Shown piece by piece: positions 3,457 to 25,622 of a DNA stretch of 33,269 nt. Position 1 is the first letter of the stretch. Each line of letters begins with the position of its first letter. The notes under the pieces were generated by a model. The model was given only the letters and a program-made list of their open reading frames with translations, was not told the origin of the DNA and searched no databases. Source of the stretch: Nitrospirota bacterium (lineage in GTDB: Bacteria; Nitrospirota; UBA9217); the NCBI GenBank assembly GCA_029858565.1, contig JAOUEV010000041.1, positions 1-33,269 on the forward strand, in the 5' to 3' direction. Made by a program: the position numbers and the translations under genes.

Positions 3457-4644
3457 GTGCCTCTTTTCGAAAACATCATCCACGCTTCTTTCATTTCCCG
3501 CCCCAACCGCTTCGTTATCCTCTGCACGATCGAAGGCAAGGCCGTGCGCGCCTATCTCCCCAATCCCGGCAGGCTCTGGGAACTTCTGTTCCCGGGCACC
3601 AGGCTTGCGCTCGTCAAGTTCCCGCCATCTGCAGAGCGCAAGCTCAAGTACCTGGTCGTGGCTGTTGAACACAGCGGCCAGTGGATCATGCTGCATACGC
3701 ATCATACAAATACGGTTGCCCGCCAGTTGATCGAACAGAACCGTATCCCCGGACTCGAAGGCGCGGAGATCGTTCAAGCGGAATACAAGATCGGCCACAG
3801 CAGGTTCGACTTTCTGCTCAAAAAGGACAACAAGGAAGTCCTGCTTGAGGTCAAGTCCTGCACGCTCTTTCACCATACACTCGCAATGTTCCCTGACGCC
3901 ATCTCTGCCCGGGCCACCAGGTATCTTCTTGAACTGCAGGAACTGTCCCATAAGGGCTACACCACAGCGGTCCTGTTCGTTGTCCACTCTCCCCGCATGC
4001 AGTACTTCATGCCCGAACACCACACAGACCTGGAGTTCACCCAAACCCTTGCACAGGTCCGCAATGACGTGCTGGTAAGGGCGGTCTCGGTCGAATGGAA
4101 GGACGATCTCTCGCTCGGCACAGAGACCCGGAACCTCGTCATCCCCTGGGACCTGGTGGAGCGGGAAGCCCATGACAGCGGAAGCTATATCTTTGTTGTC
4201 AGACTGGAAAGGGACCGCGCCATCGAGATTGGGAGCATGGGAAAGGTGAAGTTCAGCAAGGGATTCTACTGCTATGTGGGCTCGGCAAAGCTGCACCTGA
4301 CCAAGCGGCTGGCCCGCCACCAGCGGATCACCAAGAAGCACCACTGGCATATAGACTACCTGCGACAGGAAGCGTCATTCCACGCGGCCATCGCCATACG
4401 CACGACCGCGGACCTGGAATGCGAGATCGCCGGTTCGCTTGAAAAGATCGCAGACTGGCAGGTGAAGGGATTCGGATGTTCCGATTGCCAATGCCCGACC
4501 CATCTCTTTGGCATGCAGAACGACCCGGTGCATGATAAAAAGTTCATTGAGATGCTGCTGGAGTTTAGGATGGGGAGAATGGAAAAAGAGCTGAGTGAAG
4601 GATTAGGACGGCAAAAAAGGATTAAGCTGCAAAACAAGGATTAA
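3457..4644 (+). CDS. sfsA: DNA/RNA nuclease SfsA fused to a C-terminal DUF123/GIY-YIG (Uri) domain
   Basis: SfsA motifs FISRPNRF, YLPNPGRLWELL, SRFDFLL, EVKSCTL and FPDA. C-terminal GSYIF...GFYCYVGSA...RLARH...HWHIDYL...GFGCSDCQCPTHLF. Confidence 0.92.
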   Translation: MPLFENIIHASFISRPNRFVILCTIEGKAVRAYLPNPGRLWELLFPGTRLALVKFPPSAERKLKYLVVAVEHSGQWIMLHTHHTNTVARQLIEQNRIPGLEGAEIVQAEYKIGHSRFDFLLKKDNKEVLLEVKSCTLFHHTLAMFPDAISARATRYLLELQELSHKGYTTAVLFVVHSPRMQYFMPEHHTDLEFTQTLAQVRNDVLVRAVSVEWKDDLSLGTETRNLVIPWDLVEREAHDSGSYIFVVRLERDRAIEIGSMGKVKFSKGFYCYVGSAKLHLTKRLARHQRITKKHHWHIDYLRQEASFHAAIAIRTTADLECEIAGSLEKIADWQVKGFGCSDCQCPTHLFGMQNDPVHDKKFIEMLLEFRMGRMEKELSEGLGRQKRIKLQNKD

Positions 4645-5623: not shown

Positions 5624-6811
5624 TTAAAAGAACGCCCTATCCAGTATCCCGGTCACGTCCTTCACCGTCATCTTCGCGGGCGTGATCTTGTACAAGCCGC
5701 CCATGGTCTGGAAGGAATTCCTGGCCATTGCCGCGAACTCCTTCCGCTGAACGCCGTACTTGGACAGGCTCTCGTTCTCCAGCCCGATGTCCCGGATCAG
5801 CTTCCGGAGCGCCTTCACGAACGCGCCGGGCCGCTCCCGCTCCACCAGCCGGTCCATGTCAACGCCCATCACCCGGGCCAGGTCGATGAAGCGCTGCGGC
5901 ACGCGCTCGCTGAGCCAGGTGAAGTAGGACACCGACAGCATGGTGAGGCCCGCGCCGTGGGGCACCTCGGGATGGAACGCGCTGATGCTGTGCTCGATGG
6001 AGTGGTGGGAGATGCATCCGGACAGGGACTCGCAGATGCCCGCGCTGGTGCTTGCCCAGGCAAGCTTGGTGCGCGCGTCGAGATTGTCAGGCTGGCGCAC
6101 GGCCACGGGCAGATAGAGCGTGATCATGCCGGCCGATTCAAGGGCAAGCAGGTCGCTTGCCGGCTGGCTGCAGGTCGCCACATAGGCTTCCACGGCGTGG
6201 AAAAAGGCGTCCATGCCCGTGTGCGCGGTGATGTCCGGCGGCACGGTCAGCATCAGCTCGGGGTCCACGATCGAAAGTTTCGGATAGGTGTCGTCATTGC
6301 CCCAGCCGATCTTCTCCTTTGCTCCGCTCTTGGTGATCACGGTCCAGGGGTCCGACTCGGTGCCTGTGCCCGCGGTGGTCGGGATCGCCACGATCGGCAG
6401 GGCGCCCTTTTTCGGCTCCTTGCACTTGCCGGTGCCGCCGCAGATATAGTCCCAGTACCTGCCCGGGTTCTTGGCCAGCATGGCGATGCTCTTGGCGGAA
6501 TCGATGGTGCTGCCGCCGCCCAGGCCCACCACAAAATCGCAGTTCTTCCTTTTCGCGAGCTTTGCCCCCTCTTCCACATGCTCCGACAGCGGGTTGGGGT
6601 GGATCGCGTCATAGACCACGGCCGCCGTCTTGTTCTGGCGCAGGTACTTGAGCGTCCGGTCAAGATGGCCGGTCCTGCGCATGGCGCCTGACGCGCCGAT
6701 CACGACCAGGGCCTTTCTTCCGGGAAGATAGGGCGTGTCAGCCAGTTTCTTGAGCGACCCCGGGCCGAACTCGATCCGCGTGGGCATGTAAAAGGAAAAG
6801 CGTTTTATCAT
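5624..6811 (-). CDS. Iron-containing alcohol dehydrogenase
   Basis: PTRIEFGPG, GLGGGSTIDSAK, IPTTAGTGTE, GMDAFFHAVEAY, HHSIEH and PHGAG. Start placed at 6811, after an AGGAGG RBS. Confidence 0.95.
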   Translation of the reverse strand: MIKRFSFYMPTRIEFGPGSLKKLADTPYLPGRKALVVIGASGAMRRTGHLDRTLKYLRQNKTAAVVYDAIHPNPLSEHVEEGAKLAKRKNCDFVVGLGGGSTIDSAKSIAMLAKNPGRYWDYICGGTGKCKEPKKGALPIVAIPTTAGTGTESDPWTVITKSGAKEKIGWGNDDTYPKLSIVDPELMLTVPPDITAHTGMDAFFHAVEAYVATCSQPASDLLALESAGMITLYLPVAVRQPDNLDARTKLAWASTSAGICESLSGCISHHSIEHSISAFHPEVPHGAGLTMLSVSYFTWLSERVPQRFIDLARVMGVDMDRLVERERPGAFVKALRKLIRDIGLENESLSKYGVQRKEFAAMARNSFQTMGGLYKITPAKMTVKDVTGILDRAFF

Positions 6812-6907
6812 GGCTTCCTCCTGGTTGAATTGACGACTGGTGCAGTATTCCGCCTGCTTGAGGGAAATCAATTCACATAAAATCGTCCTAAATCAAAAAG
6901 CATATTT

Positions 6908-7000: not shown

Positions 7001-7161
7001 TGCCGTTGTGGTCGTTTTTTGCTTCCGGTGTTGTTCCGATCGAGACCTGTTGGTCCTGAGCACAGTTTTCCTATGGATACTTTTGATTGTAGCAGAATAC
7101 CTCACGTACTGCGACAGGAAGATGTCCGGAACATCTTGACATGACCTCAACCGGGGAAATC

Positions 7162-7170
7162 TGTTATAAT
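7162..7170 (+). promoter_or_regulatory. Extended -10 sigma70-type promoter element for the large fusion gene
   Basis: TGTTATAAT (TGn followed by a perfect TATAAT) about 85 bp upstream of the ATG. AAGGAG RBS at 7241-7246. Confidence 0.55.
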
Positions 7171-7253
7171 TTGTTTAAGAGACAGAAGTCCTCCCTTTTT
7201 CCCGATCAACAGCACCTGCGACATATCAGCAACGTTCATCAAGGAGCCTCTGC

Positions 7254-10200
7254 ATGAAGACCTACCGTTTTGACGTTGTTATCATCGGCGCGGGGCCCGC
7301 GGGCGTTGCGGCAGCCGGCGCTCTTGCGGGCACCGGCATCTCCGTGGCGCTGATCGAAGCGGCTGCGTACGCGGGAGCAGAGAACTGGTCGGGCTGCGTG
7401 TACTTCACCGAGAGCCTTGCGGAGCGCGACTGCTTCGGACCGGCTGCTGTGCAGGATGCTCCTTATGAGCGCCAGGTGGTCCGGCGCGGGACGCTGGTGC
7501 ACAACGGCGTTGACGAGATCGGGCTGGCACTGACCGATCCGGCCGCCTTCCGCCACTGCTATACCGTGCTCCGGCCCCTGTACGATCCCTACTTCGCTGA
7601 CCTGGCCAGGCAAAAAGGGGCAATGCTCCTGACCGGGACCACGGTCACGTCGCTGGTGCGCAGGCACGGCCGCGTCATCGGCGTGGCCACGTCGCGCGGC
7701 ATTGTTCATGCTGATGTGGTGTTCCTTGCCGAGGGAGACGCCGCGCACCTGGTCCGCTCGGAGCGGATGGAGCGGGTGAAGGAACCCCATTACCTCCAGG
7801 GCGTCAAAGCGGTGCTGTCGCTTGCTCCGCAGGAGATCGAGGACCGCTTCGGCCTCAGGCCCGGAGAAGGCGCTGCTTATGAGATCCTTATCAGGAACGC
7901 CTCGATAGCAGGCAGGACCGCGAAGCTGAACGTGGGCGGTTTTCTGTACACCAATCGCGACAGCCTCTCGCTGGGCTACGTGGTGCCCCTGGACAACCTG
8001 AAGCGCTACTACCGCGGGGACCACAGCCTTCTGTTCGAATGGATGCGGTCCCTTCCGCACATCGCGGACCTGGCAGCAGGCGGACAACTCTCGGCCTACG
8101 GCACAAAGATCATCAGGAGCGGCGGATGGCGCGAGCGACCGGTGCTGGTCGAGGACGGCCTTTGCGTGGGCGGCGCGGCCACCGGGCTGGGCATCGACAT
8201 CCCCTTCCCGAACTTCACCGGGCCTGCTGCGGCATCGGGCCTTTATTTCGCCCGGGCGGTCAAGGCCCTGCTCAAGGACGGCAGGTCCTTTGACAAACGC
8301 AACCTGGACAATGCCTATCTCCGGCCGCTCCAGGCGAGCGTGTACGGCAGGAACGCGAAATATCTCTCCCGCTGGCCCTCCTACTTCAGCCGCTCGTCGG
8401 TCCTCTTTGGAAGGACCGCTGACATGGCCTGCGGCACAGCGCGCTTCCTGTCAGCAGGGAACTTCACGGACACGGCGCGGTTCCTGCGGGGCCACATCCT
8501 GTCCTTGCGCGGACAACGGGAGATCATCTTCGACAACCTGCGCGCCCTGACCAGCCTCAGGCTCTGGAAGCCCCTGGCCCTGACGCTCATGAACCCCGCA
8601 ACAGCAGGAAGCTGGATCATCAACCAGTTCAGGAGAATTCCTGATCACGACGCAAGGCTCAAGATCATTATCAATGTCGGTAATGCCAGGCCTGATGCAT
8701 CAGCCCTGGCCTGGCCTTTTAACAGCCTGGTCCGGCGCCTGTCCCCTGCGCTCGCGCAGGCACTGTCGCAGATCTACGGGAACAACAGCATCCCCATGGA
8801 GCAAAAGCTTGCCGCGGGAACAAGGATACTGCTCCGGGCGCTCAAACTGACCGACCTGGTCGTTCTGCCTGCCTGGGGTCTCGCGCTTACCGCGACATCG
8901 CTTGCCGCAGCCCTTTACGACGCCTTCCGCTATTATGTCCAAAAGATGCCGCTCGAGAAACTGCTTGCCGAGCCGGTCATGGCCTATGGCGCGGAGCAGC
9001 GCAAAGCGCGGGACCTTGACGCGATCAGGCCGGGAACAAGCCTGGAAGCCAAGCTCGCCTTGAACACCTCCCTGGTGGGCAGCCGTCCGCACATCAGGAC
9101 CCGCTGGCCCCGCTTTATCGCGCACCATGGCGAGAGCGCGCAGATCGGGCTGTGGTGGGTCTGCCCGGCCCGGGTCTACCACTATGACGCGCCGCTCATG
9201 GGCCGCGGCAAAGTGACTGTGAACTGGGAGAACTGCATCAAGTGCGAATCCTGCTGGCGCGCTGAACCGGGGTACACGCTCTGGGGCCGGTTCACGGACC
9301 ACGGCCTTGTGTACCGGCCCGAGAGCGGTGCCATGGAGGACCTGCTCCGGAACCTGGCGCAGCAGCGCGGCACCGCGCTTCCGGCGTTGCCCCGGGAGGA
9401 AGAGGAAAAGCTCTGGTACACGGGCACCCGGGACTCCGCAGCCATGGCCCCGGTGCTCTCAGCAATGGCCGCGTTCCGCGACGCCCTTGCGCGTGTTCCC
9501 GCGTCGATCGACCGGACCCGGTTCCGCTGGCCGCTCCTGCTGGGAGAACGGGTCTGCGAAAAGCTCCGCTCCCTTGAACAGGTGTTCATCGAAGAAGGCC
9601 GCAGGGACGCCGGGGCTGAGCTCAAGGCCGAAGGCGCTGCACTCTCCCTGCGGCTGGCAAAAGGCGAGCTCTTTCCCGCGCTCTACATAGTGGAACGGCT
9701 TGAATACCGCCTGGGCGCATGGTTCACCAGCTCACCGTCCCGCATCTCCATCCGTCCGGAAAAGGAAGCTGAAGATATTGCCCAGCCGGCAAAAGAGCTT
9801 GCAGTGCTCTTTCCCGACCGCATGGTCAAGGAGTGGGAAGAGCGGCCGCTGACCCCTGAGGAGACAGCATCGCTCCACCGGCTGCTTGCAACGCTGCAGC
9901 ATCCGGTCATGACAACTGTCCGCGCGCTCGCGGCAATAAGCCCCGCCCTGGCCCTGATCGCAAGCCGCCAGGCACGGGCCCTGCGCGTGCTCGCGGCAGC
10001 GAAGCGGAAGCCCTTTTCCGGAGCCTCCGTGCTTTCCGCGGCCGATCTCGCGATCACCCCGCGCGAAAACAGCATCTCCCTGTCCGGCACGATTGAGCTG
10101 GCGCCGCTTACCGGAGTAACCGCGCTGATCCTGGTCGCGGGAACAAAGGCCTATCACCTTCCGCTCTCCCATGCAGGCGTCATCGTGACGCCCACGCCTG

Positions 10201-13200
10201 CCATCGGCTTCCGCGCCGCAGGACTTTCCACCATCACCCTTGACAGCACCATCAGCGCTGACGCGGTCTTTGATCTTCCCGAGGGCCAGGACAGCGACGC
10301 ACAGGAGTACCTGGCCATCGCGCTCGGCGCAGCTGACTATCTCAGCCGCAGGGTGAGGGAGCACGCGGCCGGCCGGGTCCAGTTCAGCGGCCAGATGCTC
10401 GACACCGAGGGCCGCGACGGCATCGCAAAGCTCGGCGCGGTCAAGGCGCTCGTAGCACGCGTCGAAGCCTGGCGCCTGCTGCTGGAATCGCTTTACGCTG
10501 TTCACTCCGCACTCCGCACTCCGCACTCCGCACTTGACGCCCTCCTCGCCTCTCTCGCGGCCCAGGCCTTCAGCCCCGAGCCGGGAGCATTGGGCTATGA
10601 CGCTGGCCAGGTCTTCGGCGGCTTTGCCTATTCCGAGGACGACCTTCTGGCGCGATACTATCGCGACAGTTCGATCTTCCGTTTCCTCGCGCCCGGACAG
10701 GGATCAGCGGAACTTCTGCTGCGCGCGATCGGCTCCGAAGACCTGCGGACGTTCCTTCCTGCTGAACTGGGGTCCCTGGACCGGATCACGGGCAAGCCCC
10801 TGCTGGAGCTCGCTGAACAATGGAGCAGGACCGCAGCGTCCTTTGCCGCCCTGCGAAAACAGCACGGCTCCCTGGACCATTACTCAGCAGGCCAGGCAGC
10901 GGCCCTGCTCATCAGCATCAGGACCATGCTCAGCAGGATCGAGCGCGATATCGATTCGGGCATGGGCAGGGAGGCTGATGCAGCGGCAGCGGATGTGCTG
11001 CTCGGACTTGCCAATGACGCCCTCTCTCGCGCGGCCATTGCCGTTTCCCGCACAGCAGTGCCCCTTGCGGCGGTCTTTCCCCTGGCGCCGGCAGGCGCTC
11101 AGGTCCGGCTGGAGAGCGATTACGAGGCTTTCTGTTCCCGGCCCGCTCCGGCCCATCGTTCCGGAACGTACCTGCTTTCGCTCTTTGACCGTTCGGCCCG
11201 CTATGTTCCCGAGATGCAGCTCCACGATCCCCGGCTCCGGCAGCGCTGGGAGGAGCTTGCCTCGTGGTTCCAAAAGAACTGCGAGGAGCGGACCTTTGAG
11301 GGACGCTCCTTTGAACGGCAGGTGGAACATCTCCACAACCTGCCCCCGGACATCATCGAGGCGGTGAAGAAGAACCGCTGGCTCGCGGCCACGGTCCCTT
11401 CTTCGGAGGACGGCCTGGGTTGGCGCAAGGCGGAGTACTACATCCTGAACGCCGCAGCCGGAAGTTTCGGGGACGCGGGCATCTGCCTCCTCATCATGGC
11501 GAACACCAGCATCGGCACCACGCCGATCCTGCTCGGACTGGAAGAGGAGCTTCCCCGCGTGGCCGAGGAGCTGGAACCGCTGGTGCGCGAGCCCGGGCGG
11601 ATCGAGAAGATCCTGCGGGCCCTGGACCATATCGTCCGTTCCTTCGGGCATCCCGATCCCGGCCGCATACGAAAGGAATACGCCGCGGTCATGGCGCTCG
11701 TGGACCAGCGCATCCGGCGCACGCGGGTGGTCAAGTACCTGGCCGCGAACTTCCTCAAGGCCTTCTACGGCGCGGGTCTGGCCGGACAACGGGGCGACTT
11801 CGGCGGGTTCATGACGAACCTGGGCCGCGCGGCCGAGCTCGGCAGGTCCATCCTGCCGGACGTGCGCACCGCTTACGAGGAGATGCCCCGGCGCGAACGG
11901 TGCCACCGCTTCCATCTCAGGACCCTGGGCCACGGCGGCGTGGCAGCCTTTGCCCTGACCGAGCCGGCAGCAGGGTCCGACACCGGCGGCGTCAGGACCA
12001 CGGCCCGGCTCACCACAGCCATGCTCTCGCCCATGCCCGACGGCAGGTTCGCCTTCTCGCCCACCGGCGAGACCGGCAAGTGCGTTCGCTACCTTATTGA
12101 CGCAGACCAGGTGGTCTTCACCGCCGAAGGCATGGCCTACCGCACTCCCGGCGGCGGAACAGCGCTCATCAACCATGACAGCCTCAACAAGGTCAGGTTC
12201 TACAAGTATAACGACGGGGTCTGCGAGTTCCACGATATCGGCCAGGTGCGCAAGCTCGACATCGGCCTTGCCTACGAATACTACAGCCTCACGGGCTCGA
12301 AAATGTGGATCACCAACGGCGCCATCGCGACGCAGTTCAGCCTCTACGCGCAGACGCCCGAGGGCGTGACCGGGTTCATCGTGGACCGCTGCGCCGAAGG
12401 CCTGATCGTGGGAGCGGATGAGCGCAAGATGGGCCAGCGCGGATCGCCGACCAACGAACTGGCGCTGGACAGCGTCCGCGTTCCCCGTGAAGCAGTGATC
12501 GGCTATGAAGGCCACGGCCAGGTGAACGCCCTGGAGACCTTGAACGTGGGGCGCTGCGGTCTCGCGGTCGTTGCCGGCGCGATCGTGCGGAAAGTGCTGG
12601 CCGAGGCCGACAGGAACCTTCCCGCGTCAGCGGAGCGGGACGCGCTCCTGGGAGAGGCCGCGGCGATCCTCTTTGGAAGCGAATCCGTTGCCTACTACCT
12701 CATCGGCCTCTTTGACCGCGCCCATGAGTCGGTCAGGATCGAATCAGCGATCGCCAAGTATCTCTGCGCCGAGGACCTGCACGAGATCCTGTCGCTGGTC
12801 GAACGGGCCTACGGCCCCGCGGGCCAGACCGAGAGGTTCCTGCTTGAGAAGGCGCGGCGCGACAGCCGGATCCTGAACATCTACGAAGGCACCAATGAGG
12901 TGCAGCGCTTCCTCATCCTGAAGGACCTGATCGCCATGGCAGCGGACTGGCCCGAGCTGCCCGAGGCGCTGCATGAACGGCCTGACGATGACCATGCCCG
13001 TGTTCTCGGCCGTTGGAAGAACCGTGTGCGGGCCCATGTCCGGGACGTGAACGCGCGGTTCAAGGACACCGCCTGGATGGACGCCATGCTGCAGCCTGCG
13101 CTGTTCCTTCTGCCGGAAATGGCGGGAGAGGTGCTGCGGCTCGAATGCGTTCTTTTCCGCAGGGAGTGGCTCACTGCGCGGGTCGCGGCACTGGGAAAAA

Positions 13201-15122
13201 GCCATGTTGATCCCATGCTGGCTGCTGCGGACAGGGCAACGAGCCGCAGCCTGGCCCGGCTGGACCATCTTGATGCGACATTCCGTTCAGCCTGGGAACG
13301 GCTGTCTGTTGACCTGGTCACTTCCGCGATCACCGCAGCTGATGCAGCGATGCCCTTGGCGCCCGTCCCTGCCTCGGTTCCCGCGGTCCATGCTCCGGCA
13401 GGTAAGCTCCGTGTGCTCGTGCTGCTCAGGCCTGCTGCAGAGCTGTCGCCCCGTCCGCGCCTGCACAAGGGGGACTTCGCAGAACTTCTCTGGACCATCG
13501 ACCCCCTTGACCGCTCCGCCCTTGACCAGGCCTTTGCACTGAAGGAAGCCGCCGGGTCCCTGGTGACCGTCGATGTGCTGCTCCCCGGGACAGAACGTTC
13601 GGAAGATCTCCTGCAAGACCATGCGGGACAGGCAGATCGCCTGGTCCGCCTTGCAACGCCATACGCTGACCGCGCCATGCTTGCCCGGGCGATCAGACAC
13701 CTGGAAAAAAGCGGCGCCTACGATATCATCGCGCTGGGCGTTGAGAGCCGCGACGGGGACAGCACCTGCGCGCCCTTTCTTGCCAATGCTCTGAAGCGGC
13801 AGTATCACTCCCTTGCGGACCTGTCCGTGCTCAGCCGGACCGGCGGCGAGCTTCTCTCCCTGCCTGCGGTCGTGGCCCTTTGCCGCACAGCGGGAAAGCG
13901 TACTGCTGCAATCAATGAGCTCATCGATGCCCGCTCCACGTCAGTGGAGGTCCTGGGTCCTGCTGGTACGCCGTTGTCGATCCCCGGGTTCACCGTGCCC
14001 CGGGCTGCCGCGTCAGGCCGTCCGATCGCAGCGACCGTCAAAGCCGCAGCGGAAGTGCTTCGGGATTTTGCCGCAGCCAAGAGCTCGGAAACAGCGCCGC
14101 CCTACACCGGCGTTATTCCGCAGGGGCCGTTGCCTGCGGGGCCTTCTGCCTGGGCGATCATCGATCCCCTGTCCGGCCGCGCAGGAACCGCCGCGATGCG
14201 GGCGTGCCGCATGGCAGCCGCGCTCTTCGGACTCCCTGCTTACGTTTATATCGCTGCGCCGCAAGACCGCTGGCCCGGGCTTATCGGATCAGCACAAGCC
14301 TCGGGCGCGGACCAGGCCTTCTGTCTGGATACGGGATCAGGGACCCTGTCTGAAGAAGGAAAGGTCCAGGTCCTCGGCATGGTGAGCAGTGCCTCTGCCG
14401 GTTCCGCGATGGTCTTCAGCAGCGAGCCCTGGAGCGATGCCATGGCCTTGTGCGCGCGCGAGGACACCGTGCTCATGACCAACGCCACGGGAATGGAGCG
14501 GCTGGAACAGGGCGTCCTCGCGGTATCTTCACCCTGTTTCCAGGGCAGGCTGGTACGGACGGAACAGCTCGCGGACCGGGCGGCGTTCGTGACCCTGGGC
14601 AATGGAGCGGAACTGCCGGCGCCCCGGCCCGCGGAAGGATTCGCTGCATATGCGCTGGAAGGACCAGCGGCGCTCCACTGGACGACACCTCTTGCGCCGC
14701 CTGCCCCGCCGGCGCTTGCGACCGCTGAGGTGATCATCGACCTCGGCTACGGCGCCCGCGGCAAGGAAGGCTACGATCTGGCGCTGGAACTGAAGAAGGC
14801 GCTCGAGGACCTGGGACTGGAGCCTGTATTCGGAGCAACGCGCAAGGTCACCCAGGACCTGAAGCTTCTTCCCCTGGACGCGCAGATCGGCCAGACCGGC
14901 GTGCGCGTGGACCCGAAACTCATCATCGCACTTGGCATCTCCGGCGCGCCCCAGCATGTGGACTGGATCGGCGACCGCGCAGAGGTGCTGTGCTTCAACA
15001 AGGACCCCCAGGCGCCGCTCATGCTGCTGAACCAGAGCCGTCCGGGACCGCGGGTCCATCCCGTGGCAGGGGATCTGTTCACGACCGTGCCGGAGCTTAT
15101 TGCGCTGCTGAAAAAGAGGTAG
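7254..15122 (+). CDS. 2622-aa multidomain flavo-iron-sulfur protein: FixC/ETF-QO-like oxidoreductase + FixX-like ferredoxin + degenerate acyl-CoA dehydrogenase + acyl-CoA dehydrogenase + EtfB-like + EtfA-like
   Basis: VVIIGAGPAG, ENWSG, LAEG and GGFLYTNRDSLSLG (FixC); VCPARVY...NCIKCESC (FixX); GRVQF...AGQVFGGFAYSED...RYYRDS (ACAD C-terminal); AFALTEPAAGSD, GSKMWITNG, KMGQRGSPT and RILNIYEGTNEVQR (ACAD); LRVLVLLRP...IDPLDRSALDQA...LGVESRDGD (EtfB); AEVIIDLGYG, FGATRKV and QIGQTG...IALGISGAPQH (EtfA). Confidence 0.9.
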   Translation: MKTYRFDVVIIGAGPAGVAAAGALAGTGISVALIEAAAYAGAENWSGCVYFTESLAERDCFGPAAVQDAPYERQVVRRGTLVHNGVDEIGLALTDPAAFRHCYTVLRPLYDPYFADLARQKGAMLLTGTTVTSLVRRHGRVIGVATSRGIVHADVVFLAEGDAAHLVRSERMERVKEPHYLQGVKAVLSLAPQEIEDRFGLRPGEGAAYEILIRNASIAGRTAKLNVGGFLYTNRDSLSLGYVVPLDNLKRYYRGDHSLLFEWMRSLPHIADLAAGGQLSAYGTKIIRSGGWRERPVLVEDGLCVGGAATGLGIDIPFPNFTGPAAASGLYFARAVKALLKDGRSFDKRNLDNAYLRPLQASVYGRNAKYLSRWPSYFSRSSVLFGRTADMACGTARFLSAGNFTDTARFLRGHILSLRGQREIIFDNLRALTSLRLWKPLALTLMNPATAGSWIINQFRRIPDHDARLKIIINVGNARPDASALAWPFNSLVRRLSPALAQALSQIYGNNSIPMEQKLAAGTRILLRALKLTDLVVLPAWGLALTATSLAAALYDAFRYYVQKMPLEKLLAEPVMAYGAEQRKARDLDAIRPGTSLEAKLALNTSLVGSRPHIRTRWPRFIAHHGESAQIGLWWVCPARVYHYDAPLMGRGKVTVNWENCIKCESCWRAEPGYTLWGRFTDHGLVYRPESGAMEDLLRNLAQQRGTALPALPREEEEKLWYTGTRDSAAMAPVLSAMAAFRDALARVPASIDRTRFRWPLLLGERVCEKLRSLEQVFIEEGRRDAGAELKAEGAALSLRLAKGELFPALYIVERLEYRLGAWFTSSPSRISIRPEKEAEDIAQPAKELAVLFPDRMVKEWEERPLTPEETASLHRLLATLQHPVMTTVRALAAISPALALIASRQARALRVLAAAKRKPFSGASVLSAADLAITPRENSISLSGTIELAPLTGVTALILVAGTKAYHLPLSHAGVIVTPTPAIGFRAAGLSTITLDSTISADAVFDLPEGQDSDAQEYLAIALGAADYLSRRVREHAAGRVQFSGQMLDTEGRDGIAKLGAVKALVARVEAWRLLLESLYAVHSALRTPHSALDALLASLAAQAFSPEPGALGYDAGQVFGGFAYSEDDLLARYYRDSSIFRFLAPGQGSAELLLRAIGSEDLRTFLPAELGSLDRITGKPLLELAEQWSRTAASFAALRKQHGSLDHYSAGQAAALLISIRTMLSRIERDIDSGMGREADAAAADVLLGLANDALSRAAIAVSRTAVPLAAVFPLAPAGAQVRLESDYEAFCSRPAPAHRSGTYLLSLFDRSARYVPEMQLHDPRLRQRWEELASWFQKNCEERTFEGRSFERQVEHLHNLPPDIIEAVKKNRWLAATVPSSEDGLGWRKAEYYILNAAAGSFGDAGICLLIMANTSIGTTPILLGLEEELPRVAEELEPLVREPGRIEKILRALDHIVRSFGHPDPGRIRKEYAAVMALVDQRIRRTRVVKYLAANFLKAFYGAGLAGQRGDFGGFMTNLGRAAELGRSILPDVRTAYEEMPRRERCHRFHLRTLGHGGVAAFALTEPAAGSDTGGVRTTARLTTAMLSPMPDGRFAFSPTGETGKCVRYLIDADQVVFTAEGMAYRTPGGGTALINHDSLNKVRFYKYNDGVCEFHDIGQVRKLDIGLAYEYYSLTGSKMWITNGAIATQFSLYAQTPEGVTGFIVDRCAEGLIVGADERKMGQRGSPTNELALDSVRVPREAVIGYEGHGQVNALETLNVGRCGLAVVAGAIVRKVLAEADRNLPASAERDALLGEAAAILFGSESVAYYLIGLFDRAHESVRIESAIAKYLCAEDLHEILSLVERAYGPAGQTERFLLEKARRDSRILNIYEGTNEVQRFLILKDLIAMAADWPELPEALHERPDDDHARVLGRWKNRVRAHVRDVNARFKDTAWMDAMLQPALFLLPEMAGEVLRLECVLFRREWLTARVAALGKSHVDPMLAAADRATSRSLARLDHLDATFRSAWERLSVDLVTSAITAADAAMPLAPVPASVPAVHAPAGKLRVLVLLRPAAELSPRPRLHKGDFAELLWTIDPLDRSALDQAFALKEAAGSLVTVDVLLPGTERSEDLLQDHAGQADRLVRLATPYADRAMLARAIRHLEKSGAYDIIALGVESRDGDSTCAPFLANALKRQYHSLADLSVLSRTGGELLSLPAVVALCRTAGKRTAAINELIDARSTSVEVLGPAGTPLSIPGFTVPRAAASGRPIAATVKAAAEVLRDFAAAKSSETAPPYTGVIPQGPLPAGPSAWAIIDPLSGRAGTAAMRACRMAAALFGLPAYVYIAAPQDRWPGLIGSAQASGADQAFCLDTGSGTLSEEGKVQVLGMVSSASAGSAMVFSSEPWSDAMALCAREDTVLMTNATGMERLEQGVLAVSSPCFQGRLVRTEQLADRAAFVTLGNGAELPAPRPAEGFAAYALEGPAALHWTTPLAPPAPPALATAEVIIDLGYGARGKEGYDLALELKKALEDLGLEPVFGATRKVTQDLKLLPLDAQIGQTGVRVDPKLIIALGISGAPQHVDWIGDRAEVLCFNKDPQAPLMLLNQSRPGPRVHPVAGDLFTTVPELIALLKKR
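10503..10534 (+). repeat. CACTCCG heptamer tandem repeat inside the CDS
   Basis: Four full copies plus CACT, encoding HSALRTPHSAL. Confidence 0.9.
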
Positions 15123-15149: not shown

Positions 15150-15578
15150 TCAGGAACTTCCTTTCACGAACTCGGCCATTTTCAGATCCATTTTCTTGAT
15201 ATGCCCCGTGAGCCAGTTCTCGAGCTTGTGCTCGACCTCGACCGCGAGAAAGGACGTCACCTCGCCCCGCTCGTCAAGGTCCCGCGCCTTTGCCGAGAAC
15301 TCCGCCACGACCTTGGCGAACTTTTCATGCTCCAGCCGATGGACCAGGATCCCGGGGTAATTGTGGGTACGCATGAGCCGCTCCTCTGCCTGGAAATGGT
15401 CCTGGACCCACCCCTGCAGGAACCGCAGCGTCTTCATCAGCTTGTCCCTTCCGCCCATCCCGTCGATCAGCGCCCTTCGCAGGCCGACCATGTGAAGAAA
15501 GAAGGCCTGATGCTGGTCATCCAGTTCGCTGATGCCGAGATTCAGTTCGTTCAGGACCCGTTGCTCTTCGTCTTCCAT
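15150..15578 (-). CDS. Bacteriohemerythrin
   Basis: LGISELDDQH, HFQAEERLM, YPGILVHRLEH and WLTGHIKKMD supply the di-iron His/Glu/Asp ligand set. Confidence 0.93.
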   Translation of the reverse strand: MEDEEQRVLNELNLGISELDDQHQAFFLHMVGLRRALIDGMGGRDKLMKTLRFLQGWVQDHFQAEERLMRTHNYPGILVHRLEHEKFAKVVAEFSAKARDLDERGEVTSFLAVEVEHKLENWLTGHIKKMDLKMAEFVKGSS

Positions 15579-18494: not shown

Positions 18495-19103
18495 CTACAG
18501 AAGAATCCTGGTCCCCATCAGAACGAGGACTCCTGCGGCGCCCCACCGGATCAGCGGTACATATCGATGAGCTTCCTCCCGGACGGTCTTCCCGACGAGC
18601 GCCAGCGCCCCGCCGCCGATCAGAAGGGGCGAAAGCGTGATCCCCAGACCGAATGCCAGCCCCAGCCCGGCGCCTTTGAGCAGGGAGCCGGCGCCGGCCG
18701 CTGCCGCGATGAGCGCGGCGAGCGGCACGCAGGGCACGAGGCTGGATGAGAACCCGGCTGCAAAGAGCGACAGCCCGGCTGCTGTTCGTTCCCTGCTGTC
18801 GCAGCGGTCCCTGGCGATGAAGGGAAGCGCAATTCCCGTCAGTACCAGCACGAAACCATGGAGCCGGCGTCCGGCTCCGCCGTCGGCGGGAACGAGCCCC
18901 TGCCCTGCCAATGCCGCTGCAGCGCCCAGGACCGCATAGGCGGCGGTTTTGCCTGCGGCGAAAACGGCAGACGACCGTGCGCCGTGCCGAAACCCCCTGC
19001 CGAAGGAAAGCAGATAGGGCGCGAGCGTGGGGAGACAGGCAAAGCTGCAGGTGGTGAATCCGAATCCCATGCCCAGGACCAGTGCCGACGTCATCTCAGG
19101 CAT
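18495..19103 (-). CDS. DsbD_2 / TauE-SafE-like six-helix membrane protein
   Basis: About six transmembrane segments with Cys motifs TCSFACLP and LVPCVPL. Confidence 0.8.
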
Positions 19104-19908
19104 CGACCTGCTCCCTTGTTTCGATCCAGGCGGCCCGGGCCAGGGTGGCCGCGCCGATGGCGGTGGTGAACTGCGGCAGCGCCGGGACCGTCACCTTTCG
19201 CATGAGTTCATCCTCCAGGGCCGCGACCATGCCGCTGTTCAGCGCCGGTCCGCCGTCGAAGAACACCCCGTCCTCGATCCCGATCCGCCTGGCCAGCCGC
19301 ACGATCCTGCGGGCGATGGAGTAATGCACGCCCGCAACGATCTCCTCCCTGCCGTGGCCGTTCGCCAGAAGGCTGATGATCTCCGACTCGGCGAAGACCG
19401 TGCAGGTGCTGGTTACGGGCAGCGGCGCGCCGGAACAGCGACGGTGCAGGTCGCCAAGCTCGTCCACCTCCGTGCCGAGGTTCCGGGCTGTCATCTCGAG
19501 GAACCGGCCGGTCCCTGCCGCGCACTTGTCGTTCATCACGAAGTTCCTTACCTGGCCGTCCGCGTCCAGGAGCAGGACCTTGGAATCCTGACCGCCGATA
19601 TTGATGATCGTCCGGACCGCATCCGATCCGGCGATGGCCCGTGCGCCTGCTGCGTTGGCCGTGATCTCGCTCACGGTCTCGTCGGCATCGTGAAAAAGTT
19701 TCCTGCCGTATCCCGTGGACAGGACGTATGCCACGTCGGAGCGATCGATGCCTTCCTCCTCCAGCAGGAGCCCGAGCGCCGCAAGCGTGTTCTTCCTGAA
19801 ATGGCTGCCTGTGGGGGCGGCCGTCCGGCCTGCCGGCATCCCTTCATCGTCCATCAGCGCGATCTTGATCGCCGTGGACCCCATGTCGATCCCTGCGAAA
19901 TATCTCAT
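19096..19908 (-). CDS. HgdC/BadG-family ATP-dependent [4Fe-4S] activator (DCCP-R-like)
   Basis: GIDMGST, STGYGR, IGGQDSK, MNDKCAAGTGRFLE and STCTVFAESE. Confidence 0.93.
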   Translation of the reverse strand: MRYFAGIDMGSTAIKIALMDDEGMPAGRTAAPTGSHFRKNTLAALGLLLEEEGIDRSDVAYVLSTGYGRKLFHDADETVSEITANAAGARAIAGSDAVRTIINIGGQDSKVLLLDADGQVRNFVMNDKCAAGTGRFLEMTARNLGTEVDELGDLHRRCSGAPLPVTSTCTVFAESEIISLLANGHGREEIVAGVHYSIARRIVRLARRIGIEDGVFFDGGPALNSGMVAALEDELMRKVTVPALPQFTTAIGAATLARAAWIETREQVDA

Positions 19909-21179
19909 GCCCGTTTCCTCGCCTTTCCTCTCAGCGATTCGATGAACGCCTCGACCCGCGTGGACAACTGGCCGTGGTCGTCGGGACCGTAGTCCGTTTC
20001 CACGAGGAGCAGGGGAATGTTCGCTGCCGCCAGGGCCCTGCCCACGGTCCGCTGCTCCTGATCATAGGGCATGCACCCGGCGATGGTCTGGTAGACCACG
20101 CCATCGGCGGAGAAGGTCTGCGCCAGGTCCAGCAGCCTGCGGATCCGGTCCTGCGACGAACTGAACACCGGGCAGGTGCAGGGTTTGAGCGCGCGGTCGG
20201 CCACGGCAGGCACCATGTCGTAGAGCGCCTGTTCGTCGTAGGCAGCAAGATCGTACAGGAGCCGCGACGACGAACAGACCTCGTCCGCCACGATCACGCC
20301 GCCTGCCTGTTCGATCAGGAGCGGAAGCTTCAGGTTCGGGAACACCGGCGGCGATCCCGTGAAGAGGATGCGTGCGGCATGCTTTCCCGCGACAAAAACA
20401 CTCCGATCCTGCCGGTCTTCCAGCTCGTCGGCGAGCGCATTCACCGCGCCGGTCCAGCGGTCCAGGTCGTCGAAGAAATAGGCGTTGGTCACGAGCATGG
20501 CGTCCGTGCCCCGGATCAGCGCTTGCCGGGATTGCTGGAGCCCGTGCAGCCGCCGGTAGGCAGCGCGGGCAAGGCCGGTCGCCCGGATCGCATCGGCAAG
20601 CCGCTGTTTCGTGATCCGCACACCCGTGGTCCGCTCGAGCGCTGCGCCGAAGTTCTTCACCGAACGGTGCCAGTACTCCCGCGCTTCCTCGGAATCCCGT
20701 GAGGCCGGCATTTCAAGGTTATATACCCGGTACCCGAACTCCTCCAGGAGCTCTCCGGCCTTCTTTTTCTGATCGCAGGTGGTCGGGTTCACCACGAGAT
20801 CGAGCGTTCCGGAAAACGCCGTGCTGCGCAGGGAGAGCATGCCGAGCGTCGCTTTCATGAGCGAACAGGACTTGGCGGGCAGGAACTCCGCGCCGACCTG
20901 GTCGAAGGCATGCGCGCCGCTGCAGAGCCGCACCGGCACCGCGCCTGCCGCCCGGACCAGCTCTTCCGGGACCTGCACGCAGAGCGTGCCGACGCGCTTC
21001 CTGCCGTCCTCATTCGCTCCACCGCTGCCGTAGGCGATGCGGAACTGTTCGTAGAAATACTGCATGGCCGCGGGATGGACCGGGAAGTCCTCCTCCATCT
21101 GCCGGAGCGTCTCCTTCGCTTCCATGGCGAGATGGACCCCCGTGGTCTTCCTCAGCCGCTCCAGCCGCTCCTTATCCAT
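19905..21179 (-). CDS. HgdB/FldC-family protein with a double-cubane cluster protein (DCCP)-type Cys pattern
   Basis: GTLCVQVPEEL, RLCSG, LPAKSCSLMKA, TTCDQKKK, DEVCSSSR, PCTCP, GCMPY, ETDY and TRVEAFIE. Start placed at 21179, 7 nt after GGAGG and overlapping the upstream stop. Confidence 0.88.
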   Translation of the reverse strand: MDKERLERLRKTTGVHLAMEAKETLRQMEEDFPVHPAAMQYFYEQFRIAYGSGGANEDGRKRVGTLCVQVPEELVRAAGAVPVRLCSGAHAFDQVGAEFLPAKSCSLMKATLGMLSLRSTAFSGTLDLVVNPTTCDQKKKAGELLEEFGYRVYNLEMPASRDSEEAREYWHRSVKNFGAALERTTGVRITKQRLADAIRATGLARAAYRRLHGLQQSRQALIRGTDAMLVTNAYFFDDLDRWTGAVNALADELEDRQDRSVFVAGKHAARILFTGSPPVFPNLKLPLLIEQAGGVIVADEVCSSSRLLYDLAAYDEQALYDMVPAVADRALKPCTCPVFSSSQDRIRRLLDLAQTFSADGVVYQTIAGCMPYDQEQRTVGRALAAANIPLLLVETDYGPDDHGQLSTRVEAFIESLRGKARKRA

Positions 21180-22158
21180 GGACATTCCTCCGCCTCGCTC
21201 TGTTCGCAAATCCTTCGACGGTTGCTTCGTACACCGGGATCCCGAGGAAGCTCGCGGTGAGGCATTTCTCCTCGGGACAGGCGGCAACGCACTTGAAGCA
21301 CATCATGCAGTCGTCCTGCACGATGTTTTTGCTCGTCACGTCGTCGGCGATCTCCCGGATGCCCACGTCGCAGACCCGGGAGCAGTTGCCGCAGCGGGTG
21401 CACTTCGCCCCGATTTTCGTGAGCCTGAGCAGGCCTGCCTTCGAGAAGGCATACTGCAGCGCGCTCATGGGGCAGAAGAGGCAGAAGAAGCGCCTCTTCA
21501 CAAAAGAACCGGCGAAAAAGATGCCGGTAATCGCCATCCCGAGCCCGGTCAGCACCGTCATGGTCTTGGAACTGAAATCGATGGCCAGCTGGCTGATATC
21601 TCCGGTGAAGATCGGCAGCACGGTCCGGCCGGGACAGATCATGCAGTACGCCGTGGCGAGATCGTGCGGCAGTTTGGGCGCGCCCACGAGGGAATTGCTG
21701 ATCCCGAGAGGCAAGAGCACCAGGAGCGCAAGAAGCAAATACTTGATCCCCTTGAGCCTCCGAAAGGTCCTCTCGGAGTAGAGGCTGAACCGGATGCCGA
21801 GAGCCGTCCGCACCTTGGAGACCCAGTCCTGCACGGTCCCGAGCGGACAAGCGTAGCCGCACCAGGCTTTATTGAACAGGATAAAGAACAGGATGAACGT
21901 GGCCAGCCCCACGGCAAAACCGACCCCCCGTCCGCCGAGAAACTGGGCCCAGGGCATGTTCACCTGGTGCTGGAGCGGATAGAGATAGCACGCGCCTGCG
22001 CGGGATTCGGCGAACACGCAGGAGAAGGCCGGCAGACTGTTGCCCAAGTCCACGGCAAGAAAACCGCCGTAGATCAGCAGTCCGAACGCCGCAACCTGGA
22101 ACCAGAAACGAAAGCGGTTGATGTCCCCGTTATTCAGAAAACGCTTAACCGCGTTCAT
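21172..22158 (-). CDS. Membrane polyferredoxin (NapH/MauN-like 4Fe-4S-binding protein)
   Basis: Several transmembrane helices, WCGYACPLG, YCMICPG and FFCLFCPM, plus two ferredoxin motifs CTRCGNCSRVC and CMMCFKCVAACP. Confidence 0.9.
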   Translation of the reverse strand: MNAVKRFLNNGDINRFRFWFQVAAFGLLIYGGFLAVDLGNSLPAFSCVFAESRAGACYLYPLQHQVNMPWAQFLGGRGVGFAVGLATFILFFILFNKAWCGYACPLGTVQDWVSKVRTALGIRFSLYSERTFRRLKGIKYLLLALLVLLPLGISNSLVGAPKLPHDLATAYCMICPGRTVLPIFTGDISQLAIDFSSKTMTVLTGLGMAITGIFFAGSFVKRRFFCLFCPMSALQYAFSKAGLLRLTKIGAKCTRCGNCSRVCDVGIREIADDVTSKNIVQDDCMMCFKCVAACPEEKCLTASFLGIPVYEATVEGFANRARRRNVHG

Positions 22159-25394: not shown

Positions 25395-25622
25395 GCGAAA
25401 TCCTCCCCGGTCGGACAGGGATCCTGTCTGCCTGCCCGGCCATCCCGAGCGACAAACAGGCTGTCCGCCTCTCCACGTTCGTGGCGTCGTCATTGAATTG
25501 GAAAATGGGTGATAGTGAGGTGTCCGGTGACGGTGCACAGGCGCGTCACGGCATACAGGGATGCCTGACCGCGACAGATGTCGCTGCCTGTTCACCAAAC
25601 AATACAGAAGCCGGACAGGAGG

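Follow-up and report, generated by a model that had tools for sequence, protein, structure and literature searches.

A 2622-residue fusion protein of Nitrospirota and other bacterial phyla: a probable single-chain acyl-CoA:quinone oxidoreductase

The stretch of DNA that we analyzed, called here the window, is a 33,269-nucleotide contig (JAOUEV010000041.1) of a Nitrospirota bacterium genome assembly (GCA_029858565.1). Positions 7254-15122 of its forward strand, stop codon included, hold a single ATG-initiated open reading frame (ORF) of 2622 amino acids with no internal stop. From the N- to the C-terminal, the encoded protein contains a FixC-like module, a hydrophobic helix, a four-Cys [4Fe-4S] domain of the ETF-QO/FixX type (ETF, electron transfer flavoprotein; ETF-QO, ETF:quinone oxidoreductase), a degenerate acyl-CoA dehydrogenase (ACAD), a catalytic VLCAD-like ACAD, and EtfB-like and EtfA-like modules (Table 1). 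An initial annotation had read this frame as a whole chain from ACAD through ETF to ETF-QO in one uninterrupted polypeptide. The intact frame is confirmed, each proposed segment was recovered in the proposed order and within a few tens of residues by hidden Markov model, profile and fold searches, and the reading as a whole is supported by the domain, motif, fold and distribution data described below. The domains placed by Pfam/NCBIfam are a FixC-type domain binding flavin adenine dinucleotide (FAD; residues 3-402), a weak Fer4_ETF_QO match (636-667), a weak ACAD C-domain (1021-1140), a full ACAD (~1354-1895), ETF (2080-2184) and ETF_alpha (2488-2569). Judging from homology and gene context, we consider it fairly likely that the fusion protein is a single-chain, membrane-anchored acyl-CoA:(mena)quinone oxidoreductase, probably serving the first oxidative step of fatty-acid β-oxidation.

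The N-terminal module has a FixC-type FAD-binding fold with an N-terminal GxGxxG motif. Among 29 sequences its glycines G12, G14 and G17 never vary; among 52, G12 is still invariant while G14 and G17 are kept in at least 90%. NCBIfam assigns the module to FixC/PRK10015 with an E-value of 2.5e-49, which is under the curated cut-off, and the family profile matches Thermotoga FixC (PDB 7koe_C) at 1.3e-47. An AlphaFold model of residues 1-730, built from a 52-row alignment, has a mean pLDDT (predicted local confidence) of 88.8 and a pTM (predicted template-modelling score) of 0.89. In Foldseek this model matches 7koe_C with a template-modelling (TM) score of 0.87 on the target, and porcine ETF-QO (2gmh) with an E-value of 1.7e-21 over 747 alignment columns.

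The FixC-like module is followed by a helical insert (residues ~405-600) whose sequence is poorly conserved, with one strongly hydrophobic stretch always present in the 53 aligned sequences. The Kyte-Doolittle maximum of this stretch (residues 535-554, 19-residue window) is above 2.0 in most of these homologues and 1.74 in the window copy, and the model places it in a helix of 29 residues. It is this one conserved hydrophobic helix that suggests a membrane association of the fusion protein. Because a single transmembrane pass would leave the membrane standing between the FixC part and the Fe-S part, we infer a monotopic or re-entrant anchor.

The Fe-S domain carries the motif CPAxxY...CxxCxxC. 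The segments C637-P-A-x-V-Y and N-C661-x-K-C664-E-x-C667 are invariant both in the 29 and in the 52 sequences, and among 106 long homologues CPAx[VI]Y is found in all and C[IV]xC[EK][ST]C in 105. We take the pattern of C637, C661, C664 and C667 to be the ligand pattern of the single [4Fe-4S] cluster of ETF-QO. The Pfam Fer4_ETF_QO match at this position is weak (E 0.056) and a single-sequence PDB search of residues 400-720 gave no match, so that the assignment relies on the Cys motif and the fold match to 2gmh together with the weak Pfam match.

The middle of the protein holds two ACAD modules. The second one (ACAD2, residues ~1319-1965) shows the three-domain ACAD fold with the catalytic Glu and the TEPxxGSD and W-I-T-N-G motifs. 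Its family profile finds CarC (1.4e-61), ACAD9 (8e-61) and VLCAD (3e-60). The motifs FALTEPxAGSD (T1569-D1576), GxKMWITNG (W1685-G1689) and IYEGTNEVQRF with E1878 are invariant, and YEG[TS]NE is present in 106/106 long homologues. ACAD2 has two large inserts, one of ~140 amino acids between the N-domain and TEPxAGSD and one of ~70 amino acids within the β-domain. It has no R-x-Q-F-G in the alignments, and the residues opposite IHGGYGY of CarC read 'ilG..Gqt'.

The first ACAD module (residues ~870-1265) is recognizable as an ACAD homologue that has no catalytic Glu motif. A search with its family profile gives VLCAD (8ca1_B, E 6.8e-9) along with further ACADs; the Pfam family PF00441 matches at 10314-10733 with 24.3 bits, just above the cut-off, and an hhalign comparison with the downstream ACAD gives an E-value of 5.4e-5 with a probability of 66%. 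Only two short blocks are strongly conserved, E-H-A-x-x-R1041-V-Q-F-x-G and Q1119-V-F-G-G-x-A-Y-S-E-D-D...Y1136-R-D. Since F-R-F-L-x-P-G stands at the position of the catalytic Y/F-E-G and the flavin-side motifs are unconserved, we call this module a pseudo-ACAD. ACAD2 keeps TEPxAGSD, KMWITNG and YEGTNE while the pseudo-ACAD keeps RVQF and QVFGG..YRD, and thus each module appears to have lost the half of the ACAD FAD site that the other retains.

Structure prediction agrees with such a division. The single-chain model of residues 775-1965 has a pLDDT of 87.9 and a pTM of 0.86, and its best fold matches are VLCAD, ACAD9, 2z1q and 3owa, with ~670-720 aligned columns. When ACAD2 (residues 1319-1930), FAD and the pseudo-ACAD core (914-1174) were predicted as a complex, a score of 0.85 was reached in 3/3 runs and the best of three controls scored 0.01; the mark used is reached by 58/80 solved complexes and by 2/110 mismatched pairs. 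At least 96% of the contacts agree between runs, and the partner pLDDT is at least 82. The confident contacts join residues 1572-1576 (A-G-S-D), W1685, 1723-1727 and 1840-1886 of ACAD2 with 1042-1045 (V-Q-F-S), Y1115, Q1119, G1122-D1129 and Y1136-R1137 of the pseudo-ACAD, so that the predicted interface falls exactly on the retained FAD-site motifs. The prediction thus places the two modules around a single FAD in the manner of an α/β ACAD dimer. As ACAD dimers have already been solved, the prediction may echo those structures and is to be read as likeness to an ACAD dimer interface rather than as binding.

The C-terminal part of the protein has the EtfB and EtfA folds, and domain II of the EtfA-like module carries the site of the electron-transferring FAD (ET-FAD), which are the features of a canonical (group 1) ETF. 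The motifs G-A/G-T/S-R2530-K, Q-I-G-Q-T/S-G and S-G-A-P-Q-H of this site are found in 52-53 of the 53 sequences. Compared with whole EtfA chains, the EtfA-like profile matches CarE at 5.7e-35 and human EtfA (1efv_A) at 1.2e-27, and the EtfB-like profile matches a bifurcating EtfB (4kpu_B, 9e-25) and a canonical one (1o94_C, 7e-24). Of the folded parts of the protein, the EtfB-like module and EtfA domain I rank among the lowest in conservation, with a column conservation of 0.3-0.5 compared with 0.73 for domain II.

In known ETFs, the part of EtfB that is called the zipper bridges the nucleotide phosphates to a conserved EtfA Arg, which explains why adenosine monophosphate (AMP) is needed for assembly; the zipper reads D-G-D-T-A-Q in bifurcating ETFs (100/95/85/100/86/93% in 216 sequences) and D-(D)-D-(S)-N-Q in canonical ones (100/68/98/36/98/92% in 449 sequences; PMC8958531). 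The window copy has DGDSTC, which keeps three of the six bifurcating positions (D-G-D), has Ser for Thr and lacks the Gln, and which does not match the canonical AMP zipper either. Across the 53 fusion proteins the corresponding columns (2167-2172) are unconserved, with D in 23, G in 25, D in 14, G in 18, V in 10 and L in 38 sequences, and each of the first four contains 10-13 gaps. In several Verrucomicrobiota (L038 and L050 among them) and in the Lentisphaeraceae copy the nucleotide loop of EtfB is deleted. Because these columns are degenerate or deleted across the 53 members, neither zipper signature is a property of the family, which argues against a bifurcating FAD. From these alignments the ETF base seems to be no longer constrained to bind a nucleotide, which is plausible if the covalent fusion replaces an AMP-dependent assembly. 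A single-sequence alignment toward the equivalent of Arg-165, which lies in EtfA domain I near the bifurcating site, covered mainly domain II.

Table 1. Features of the fusion gene and of its upstream region (positions in the window; res, residues of the fusion protein)
Feature	Position	Strand	Basis or remark
Sigma-70-like promoter match, ATGACC-18-TATAAT with TG (extended -10)	7141..7170	+	Consensus match only; 1 found vs 0.4 expected in shuffles
Shine-Dalgarno AAGGAG	7241..7246	+	7 nt before ATG of the fusion ORF; read directly off the sequence
FixC/ETF-QO-like FAD domain (res 1-405), GxGxxG at res 12-17	7254..8468	+	Pfam/NCBIfam, family profile, fold match
Long hydrophobic helix (res 534-562), putative membrane anchor inside helical insert res ~405-600	8853..8939	+	Hydrophobicity, model
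FixX/ETF-QO-type [4Fe-4S] domain (res 600-690); putative ligands C637, C661, C664, C667	9051..9323	+	Cys motif
Pseudo-ACAD (res ~870-1265); keeps R1041-x-Q-F and Q1119-x-F-G-G...Y1136-R-D; FRFLAPG in place of YEG	9861..11048	+	Profile, alignment, model
(CACTCCG)x4, perfect heptanucleotide tandem repeat, in frame	10503..10530	+	Translated as HSALRTPHSAL; lies in a variable pseudo-ACAD loop
Catalytic VLCAD/ACAD9-like ACAD (ACAD2, res ~1319-1965); FALTEPxAGSD 1566-1576, KMWITNG 1683-1689, E1878 in IYEGTNEVQ	11208..13148	+	Profile, fold, motifs
EtfB-like domain III (res ~2049-2289), weakly conserved; zipper DGDSTC res 2167-2172	13398..14120	+	Profile
EtfA-like domains I and II (res ~2296-2622); ET-FAD site G-A-T-R2530-K...Q-I-G-Q-T-G...S-G-A-P-Q-H2568 nearly invariant	14140..15119	+	Profile, motifs

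Gene context bears on the function in a few cases. When the 443 flanking ORFs of 53 loci were clustered, no universal neighbour of the fusion gene was found; the widest cluster covers eight loci, all of Verrucomicrobiota, and because no neighbour is conserved the context is informative in 3-4 loci only. In L036, L037 and L067 a FadB-like gene (enoyl-CoA hydratase and 3-hydroxyacyl-CoA dehydrogenase) lies directly upstream of the fusion on the same strand and is itself preceded by genes for a thiolase and/or an AMP-binding acyl-CoA synthetase (the Pfam run covered the neighbours of L036 and L037). The order in L067 is fadD-fadA-fadB-fusion, that is synthetase, thiolase, FadB and fusion, and in L035 the same genes lie two ORFs away.

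The source genome, which by its markers is 100% complete with 0.5% contamination, has an acyl-CoA synthetase-thiolase-FadB (fadD-fadA-fadB) operon at C14:56547-61674 (L083:6544-11674) with a DDE transposase upstream and no adjoining ACAD. It holds only two ACAD genes, the fusion and one for a 385-residue Bcd-like protein, and only two ETF_alpha matches. The Bcd-like gene is part of a second ETF cluster (C14:202428-209997; L082:4428-11997) that encodes an acyl/acetyl-CoA (AMP-binding) synthetase, EtfA (396 amino acids), EtfB (261 amino acids), the 385-residue ACAD, a FabH-like protein and PlsX. The EtfA of this cluster has an N-terminal 2x[4Fe-4S] ferredoxin domain and the cluster resembles the CarCDE/Bcd-Etf type; no quinone reductase lies beside it, and no other FixC-like gene in the source genome scores better than an E-value of 4e-5. 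MqnA/MqnD homologues of the futalosine route, also present there, point to menaquinone use by the organism. Among 41 related genomes, 20 have both the fusion and FadB (counted as a full-length match at E <= 1e-150), 18 have neither, one has the fusion alone (G006, 87% complete) and two have FadB alone (G007 and G011). Six genomes of the window's own family lack the fusion, four of which also lack FadB. This co-occurrence is suggestive, the relatives not being independent of each other.

Based on these modules, an electron route through the protein can be proposed. The catalytic ACAD module would dehydrogenate the acyl-CoA at its FAD, with E1878 as the base. The pseudo-ACAD would complete this FAD site, packed like a non-catalytic β subunit whose R-x-Q-F and Q-x-x-G-G motifs hold the ADP part of the FAD. 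Single electrons would then pass from the ACAD FAD to the FAD of a mobile ETF domain II, and from this ET-FAD through the ETF-QO/FixX-type [4Fe-4S] cluster and the FAD of the FixC-like module to the quinone at the membrane, where the protein would be held by its hydrophobic helix. The ETF base, formed by the EtfB-like module and EtfA domain I, would act as a scaffold, probably without a bifurcating FAD, and a dimerisation through the ACAD pair is possible.

Several observations weigh against this proposal. The copies of the Nitrospirota clade, including the window, have no β-oxidation neighbours, and no neighbour is common to the 53 loci. The putative anchor helix is only moderately hydrophobic in the window copy (Kyte-Doolittle 1.74). 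The standard potentials of the enoyl-/acyl-CoA couple (about -10 mV) and of menaquinone (about -74 mV) make the forward step to menaquinone slightly uphill. Finally, the best solved matches of the modules come from bifurcating complexes (CarC 6fah_C, CarE 6fah_A, Thermotoga FixC 7koe_C and EtfB 4kpu_B), and the D-G-D that the window copy keeps leaves room for a nucleotide in its ETF base.

The last two points belong to another possible option, a bifurcating or confurcating machine of the FixABCX or Bcd-EtfAB type, in which a second FAD in the ETF base would take a hydride from NADH and split the electrons between a high-potential branch (quinone and/or enoyl-CoA, via the ET-FAD) and ferredoxin or flavodoxin, or would work in reverse. 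The neighbouring genes for a BcrAD_BadFG ATPase and an HGD-D protein, from which the organism looks at least partly anaerobic, would fit such a machine. We consider it unlikely. The zipper is degenerate or deleted in the family and has lost the Thr and the Gln that are kept in 100% and 93% of the 216 bifurcating ETFs (PMC8958531), and EtfB and EtfA domain I, where the second FAD would be expected, show the weakest conservation of the folded parts. The EtfB profile matches the canonical 1o94_C as well as the bifurcating 4kpu_B, and the separate Bcd-like ACAD, EtfB and ferredoxin-bearing EtfA of the genome could fill a bifurcating role. Of the two functions that the initial annotation had offered, the acyl-CoA:quinone oxidoreductase therefore fits better, whereas the bifurcating machine fits poorly with a family in which DGDTAQ, the bifurcating zipper (PMC8958531), is unconserved.

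Another hypothesis keeps the architecture as described and changes the substrate, which could be an acyl thioester of some other pathway, whether bulky, branched, alicyclic or carrier-bound. The two large inserts of ACAD2 could be explained in this way, most clades have no conserved neighbours, and the ACADs of the α/β type known to date act on steroid side chains (PMC11153573). The fadD-fadA-fadB context of 3-4 loci and the co-occurrence with fadB speak for fatty acids instead, as do the best fold matches, which are VLCAD, ACAD9 and Bacillus FadE-like enzymes, and we give this hypothesis little weight.

The same wiring could also run backwards, as a menaquinol:enoyl-CoA reductase that serves as an enoyl-CoA electron sink or in reverse β-oxidation or elongation. 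By the potentials given above the step from menaquinol to enoyl-CoA is downhill, the source genome has the futalosine-pathway homologues, and the phyla that carry the fusion are mostly menaquinone users. This direction seems improbable in view of L037 and L067, where an acyl-CoA synthetase, which activates fatty acids, is strung together with thiolase and/or FadB, a catabolic set, and in view of the co-occurrence of fusion and fadB and of the VLCAD/FadE-like ACAD2 with its standard catalytic Glu. The quinone-reducing direction thus remains our preferred one.

The fusion is not restricted to the source genome. A length-matched search through 5.8 billion proteins scored 8000 candidates, of which 465 matched at E <= 1e-3, and 106 of the 120 best-listed matches are 2527-3026 amino acids long. 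The databases list them under generic labels ('acyl-CoA dehydrogenase family protein', 'FAD-binding protein' or 'electron transfer flavoprotein-quinone oxidoreductase'). The module order is retained in proteins of 29-60% identity from several phyla, and by this comparison the shared order is far beyond chance. When one genome was scanned for each prokaryote species, at least 580 of the 599 pattern matches listed proved to be relatives. The best 80 of them (75 loci) all come from metagenome-assembled genomes, whose titles name Nitrospirota/Nitrospirae, Leptospirillia, Planctomycetota/Gemmataceae, Verrucomicrobiia, Acidobacteriota, Gemmatimonadota (including Ca. Kutchimonas denitrificans), Lentisphaeraceae, Alcaligenaceae and Acidiferrobacteraceae. 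At 53 of 81 loci, window included, the gene is a single open frame of no fewer than 2400 amino acids, and most of the others are contig ends. Seven of the 81 loci have a full-length match with a shorter longest frame; several of these bear MFD isolate names, and we suspect, as an unchecked assumption, that they are long-read assemblies prone to indel errors.

Within the 41 related genomes the family is present in 21, at least 11 of which (G000, G003, G005, G006, G012, G015, G017, G022, G024, G028 and G037) have it full-length in one stop-free frame. The remaining copies either run into contig ends or are broken: in G001 the frame changes at residue 1161/1162, G023 contains one TGA, and in G014 the gene is in pieces. 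Only a remnant was found in G008, a genome of the same family, where two adjacent pieces (C2:133903-136191) match residues 1-491 (FixC-like, in a 518-residue frame) and 2415-2619 (EtfA domain II, in a 219-residue frame); either the gene has lost its middle by deletion, or this is a minimal form made of two genes. In eight Verrucomicrobiota loci (L038, L041, L046, L050, L052, L054, L058 and L068) the region aligned with the pseudo-ACAD is ~356-361 instead of 516 amino acids long, a trimmed version of the same architecture. In sediment metatranscriptome run X4, contigs 90-99% alike cover 19 of 30 bins of the fusion gene; DNA may be present in such libraries and this was not counted as expression.

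In a FastTree phylogeny of the fusion proteins (52 rows, 50 of them different; L007, which is identical to L003, was left out) the Nitrospirota, Verrucomicrobiota, Acidobacteriota and Gemmatimonadota each lie on one side of a branch and the Planctomycetota appear in about four places. Since the groups follow the phyla and the end branches have a median of 0.36, the fusion appears to be old, mostly inherited within phyla and under selection.

The heptanucleotide repeat in the pseudo-ACAD is of a kind common in this genome, which has 42 perfect heptamer repeats of at least three copies, mostly rotations of CACTCCG (14) or CAATCCG (15). A one-copy change in (CACTCCG)x4 would break the reading frame of the fusion. 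Homologues from related genera bear HSALRTP... and QSAIRNP... peptides at the same loop; the matching peptides of related Nitrospirota are HSALRTPNPALD, HSELRTPHSALN and QSAIRNPQSAIG, the last being a reading of CAATCCG repeats. In the probable source run the contigs end exactly at the repeat, where the local word depth rises from 12 to 127. The view that a chimeric join or a frame error makes separate genes look fused could draw on these contig breaks (10499-10537), where two pieces overlap by only 26 nucleotides in a word common to many other contigs, and on the few interrupted relatives (G001, G023 and the several loci with shorter frames), yet we reject it as extremely improbable, given the same order and length in 106/120 best matches, the long open frames at 53/81 loci and in at least 11/41 related genomes, the in-frame alignment of homologues right across the repeat, and a tree that follows the phyla. 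The homologues, whose full length the initial annotation had proposed to confirm in other genomes, are mostly unsplit.

The surroundings of the gene in the window are simple. The fusion ORF is flanked by a divergent iron alcohol dehydrogenase gene (5624-6871, - strand) and a convergent hemerythrin-domain gene (15150-15578, - strand), and because of these orientations it appears to be monocistronic in the source genome. Further downstream, a row of genes on the - strand (19096-22158) encodes a BcrAD_BadFG-family ATPase, a protein of the 2-hydroxyglutaryl-CoA dehydratase D-component (HGD-D) family and a membrane 4Fe-4S protein, adjoined by ExbB-ExbD-TonB and a large ORF (23244-25598, - strand) that by eye is a putative TonB-dependent receptor. 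On the other side, positions 3457-4644 (+ strand) encode a 395-residue protein in which SfsA is joined to a DUF123 domain.

The route from acyl-CoA to quinone is textbook knowledge in all three of its stages, whose carriers are known as diffusible partners and are normally five or so separate proteins. If our proposal holds, a single chain with a built-in non-catalytic ACAD partner would fix the stoichiometry and the geometry of this route and should prevent electron leakage to O2, and the entry step of β-oxidation would have to be reassigned in widespread, poorly cultured phyla of soil, sediment and groundwater (Nitrospirota, Planctomycetota, Verrucomicrobiota, Acidobacteriota and Gemmatimonadota). 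The fusion also ties together partners that otherwise meet transiently (ACAD-ETF and ETF-QO), which makes them one tethered object for purification and imaging. To our knowledge, every ETF that has been studied needs either AMP or a bifurcating FAD for assembly, and the degenerate ETF base is a natural test of why ETFs keep AMP. A bolder possibility, which we put forward tentatively and regard as somewhat doubtful, is that the covalent fusion has made the ETF base cofactor-free, with both AMP and the bifurcating FAD dispensable. The chain would then hold exactly three FAD and one [4Fe-4S] cluster, and would form an ACAD-pair dimer on the membrane in which one flavin domain swings between a tethered donor and a tethered acceptor. 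If so, it would be a new class of quinone-reducing entry into the respiratory chain of menaquinone-using phyla and an ideal object for cryo-electron microscopy of ETF domain motion.

Each part of the protein comes from a known family. The initial annotation knew of no characterised protein with this architecture, and we found no description of it in the literature searched, which includes few subscription journals; as far as searched, the complete fusion, its built-in pseudo-ACAD and its degenerate ETF base appear to be undescribed. Among the Protein Atlas entries that scored below 0.9, and are thus leads only, are ACAD families, a 531-residue ACAD+ETF_alpha cluster in Bacillota and an 825-residue ETF_alpha+HpaB cluster that is commonest in Acidobacteriota.

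Partial fusions have been described. In the BCR protein of Fusobacterium nucleatum, Bcd is joined to EtfA domain II and a rubredoxin, and together with a flavodiiron protein it forms a butyryl-CoA:oxygen oxidoreductase (PMC12288474; cited in PMC12042025). It is a precedent for a self-contained chain in which an ACAD is fused with the ETF domain that bears the FAD and with the carrier that comes next. It has ETF domain II only, without an ETF base or a quinone reductase, and passes its electrons to the flavodiiron protein, whereas in our fusion EtfB-EtfA is complete and is accompanied by an ETF-QO-like module and by a second ACAD. The 531-residue lead in Bacillota fits a fusion of the BCR type. 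In Sulfolobus acidocaldarius, SaETF has EtfB followed by EtfA in one chain, as in our fusion. Unlike the fusion, it is a bifurcating ETF that stands alone and carries two FAD, and neighbouring genes of their own encode its ACAD and FixCX/ETF-QO partners (PMC12042025).

The ACAD pair can be compared with the α2β2 ACADs ChsE4-ChsE5 (FadE26-FadE27) and ChsE1-ChsE2, in which isoalloxazine, Glu and substrate all sit in the α subunit and the β subunit contacts the ADP-ribose (PMC11153573). Judged by the motifs and the predicted interface, the two ACAD modules of the fusion would show the same division of labour. They differ in that both are in one chain with the non-catalytic one first, and in that both are VLCAD-like with helical extensions; the likeness is that they may work in the same way, not that they belong to the same group.

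In FixABCX/EtfABCX of Thermotoga maritima (7koe), FixC is the best structural match of our FixC-like module. The order of EtfB and EtfA is that of FixA-FixB, and the Fe-S domain follows the FixC-like module as FixX follows FixC. In contrast to FixABCX, the fusion has no conserved bifurcating-FAD signature, its ACAD modules lie between the FixX-like and EtfB parts, and its four conserved Cys follow the ETF-QO pattern, which is consistent with one cluster; FixX of 7koe is, we assume, a two-cluster protein.

The fusion has the four redox modules of the separate mitochondrial/bacterial chain of ACAD, EtfAB and ETF-QO (MCAD-ETF, 1t9g/2a1t; porcine ETF-QO, 2gmh), and electrons presumably pass through them in the same order. 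It keeps the ET-FAD motif, the catalytic Glu and the CPAxVY...CxxCxxC cluster motif, whereas the canonical AMP zipper (D-D-D-S-N-Q; PMC8958531) is unconserved in the fusion. Unlike that chain, the fusion has all the parts in one polypeptide in the order QO-ACAD-ETF, with an extra pseudo-ACAD and with a helical insert of ~200 amino acids that carries the hydrophobic helix between the FixC-like and Fe-S parts.

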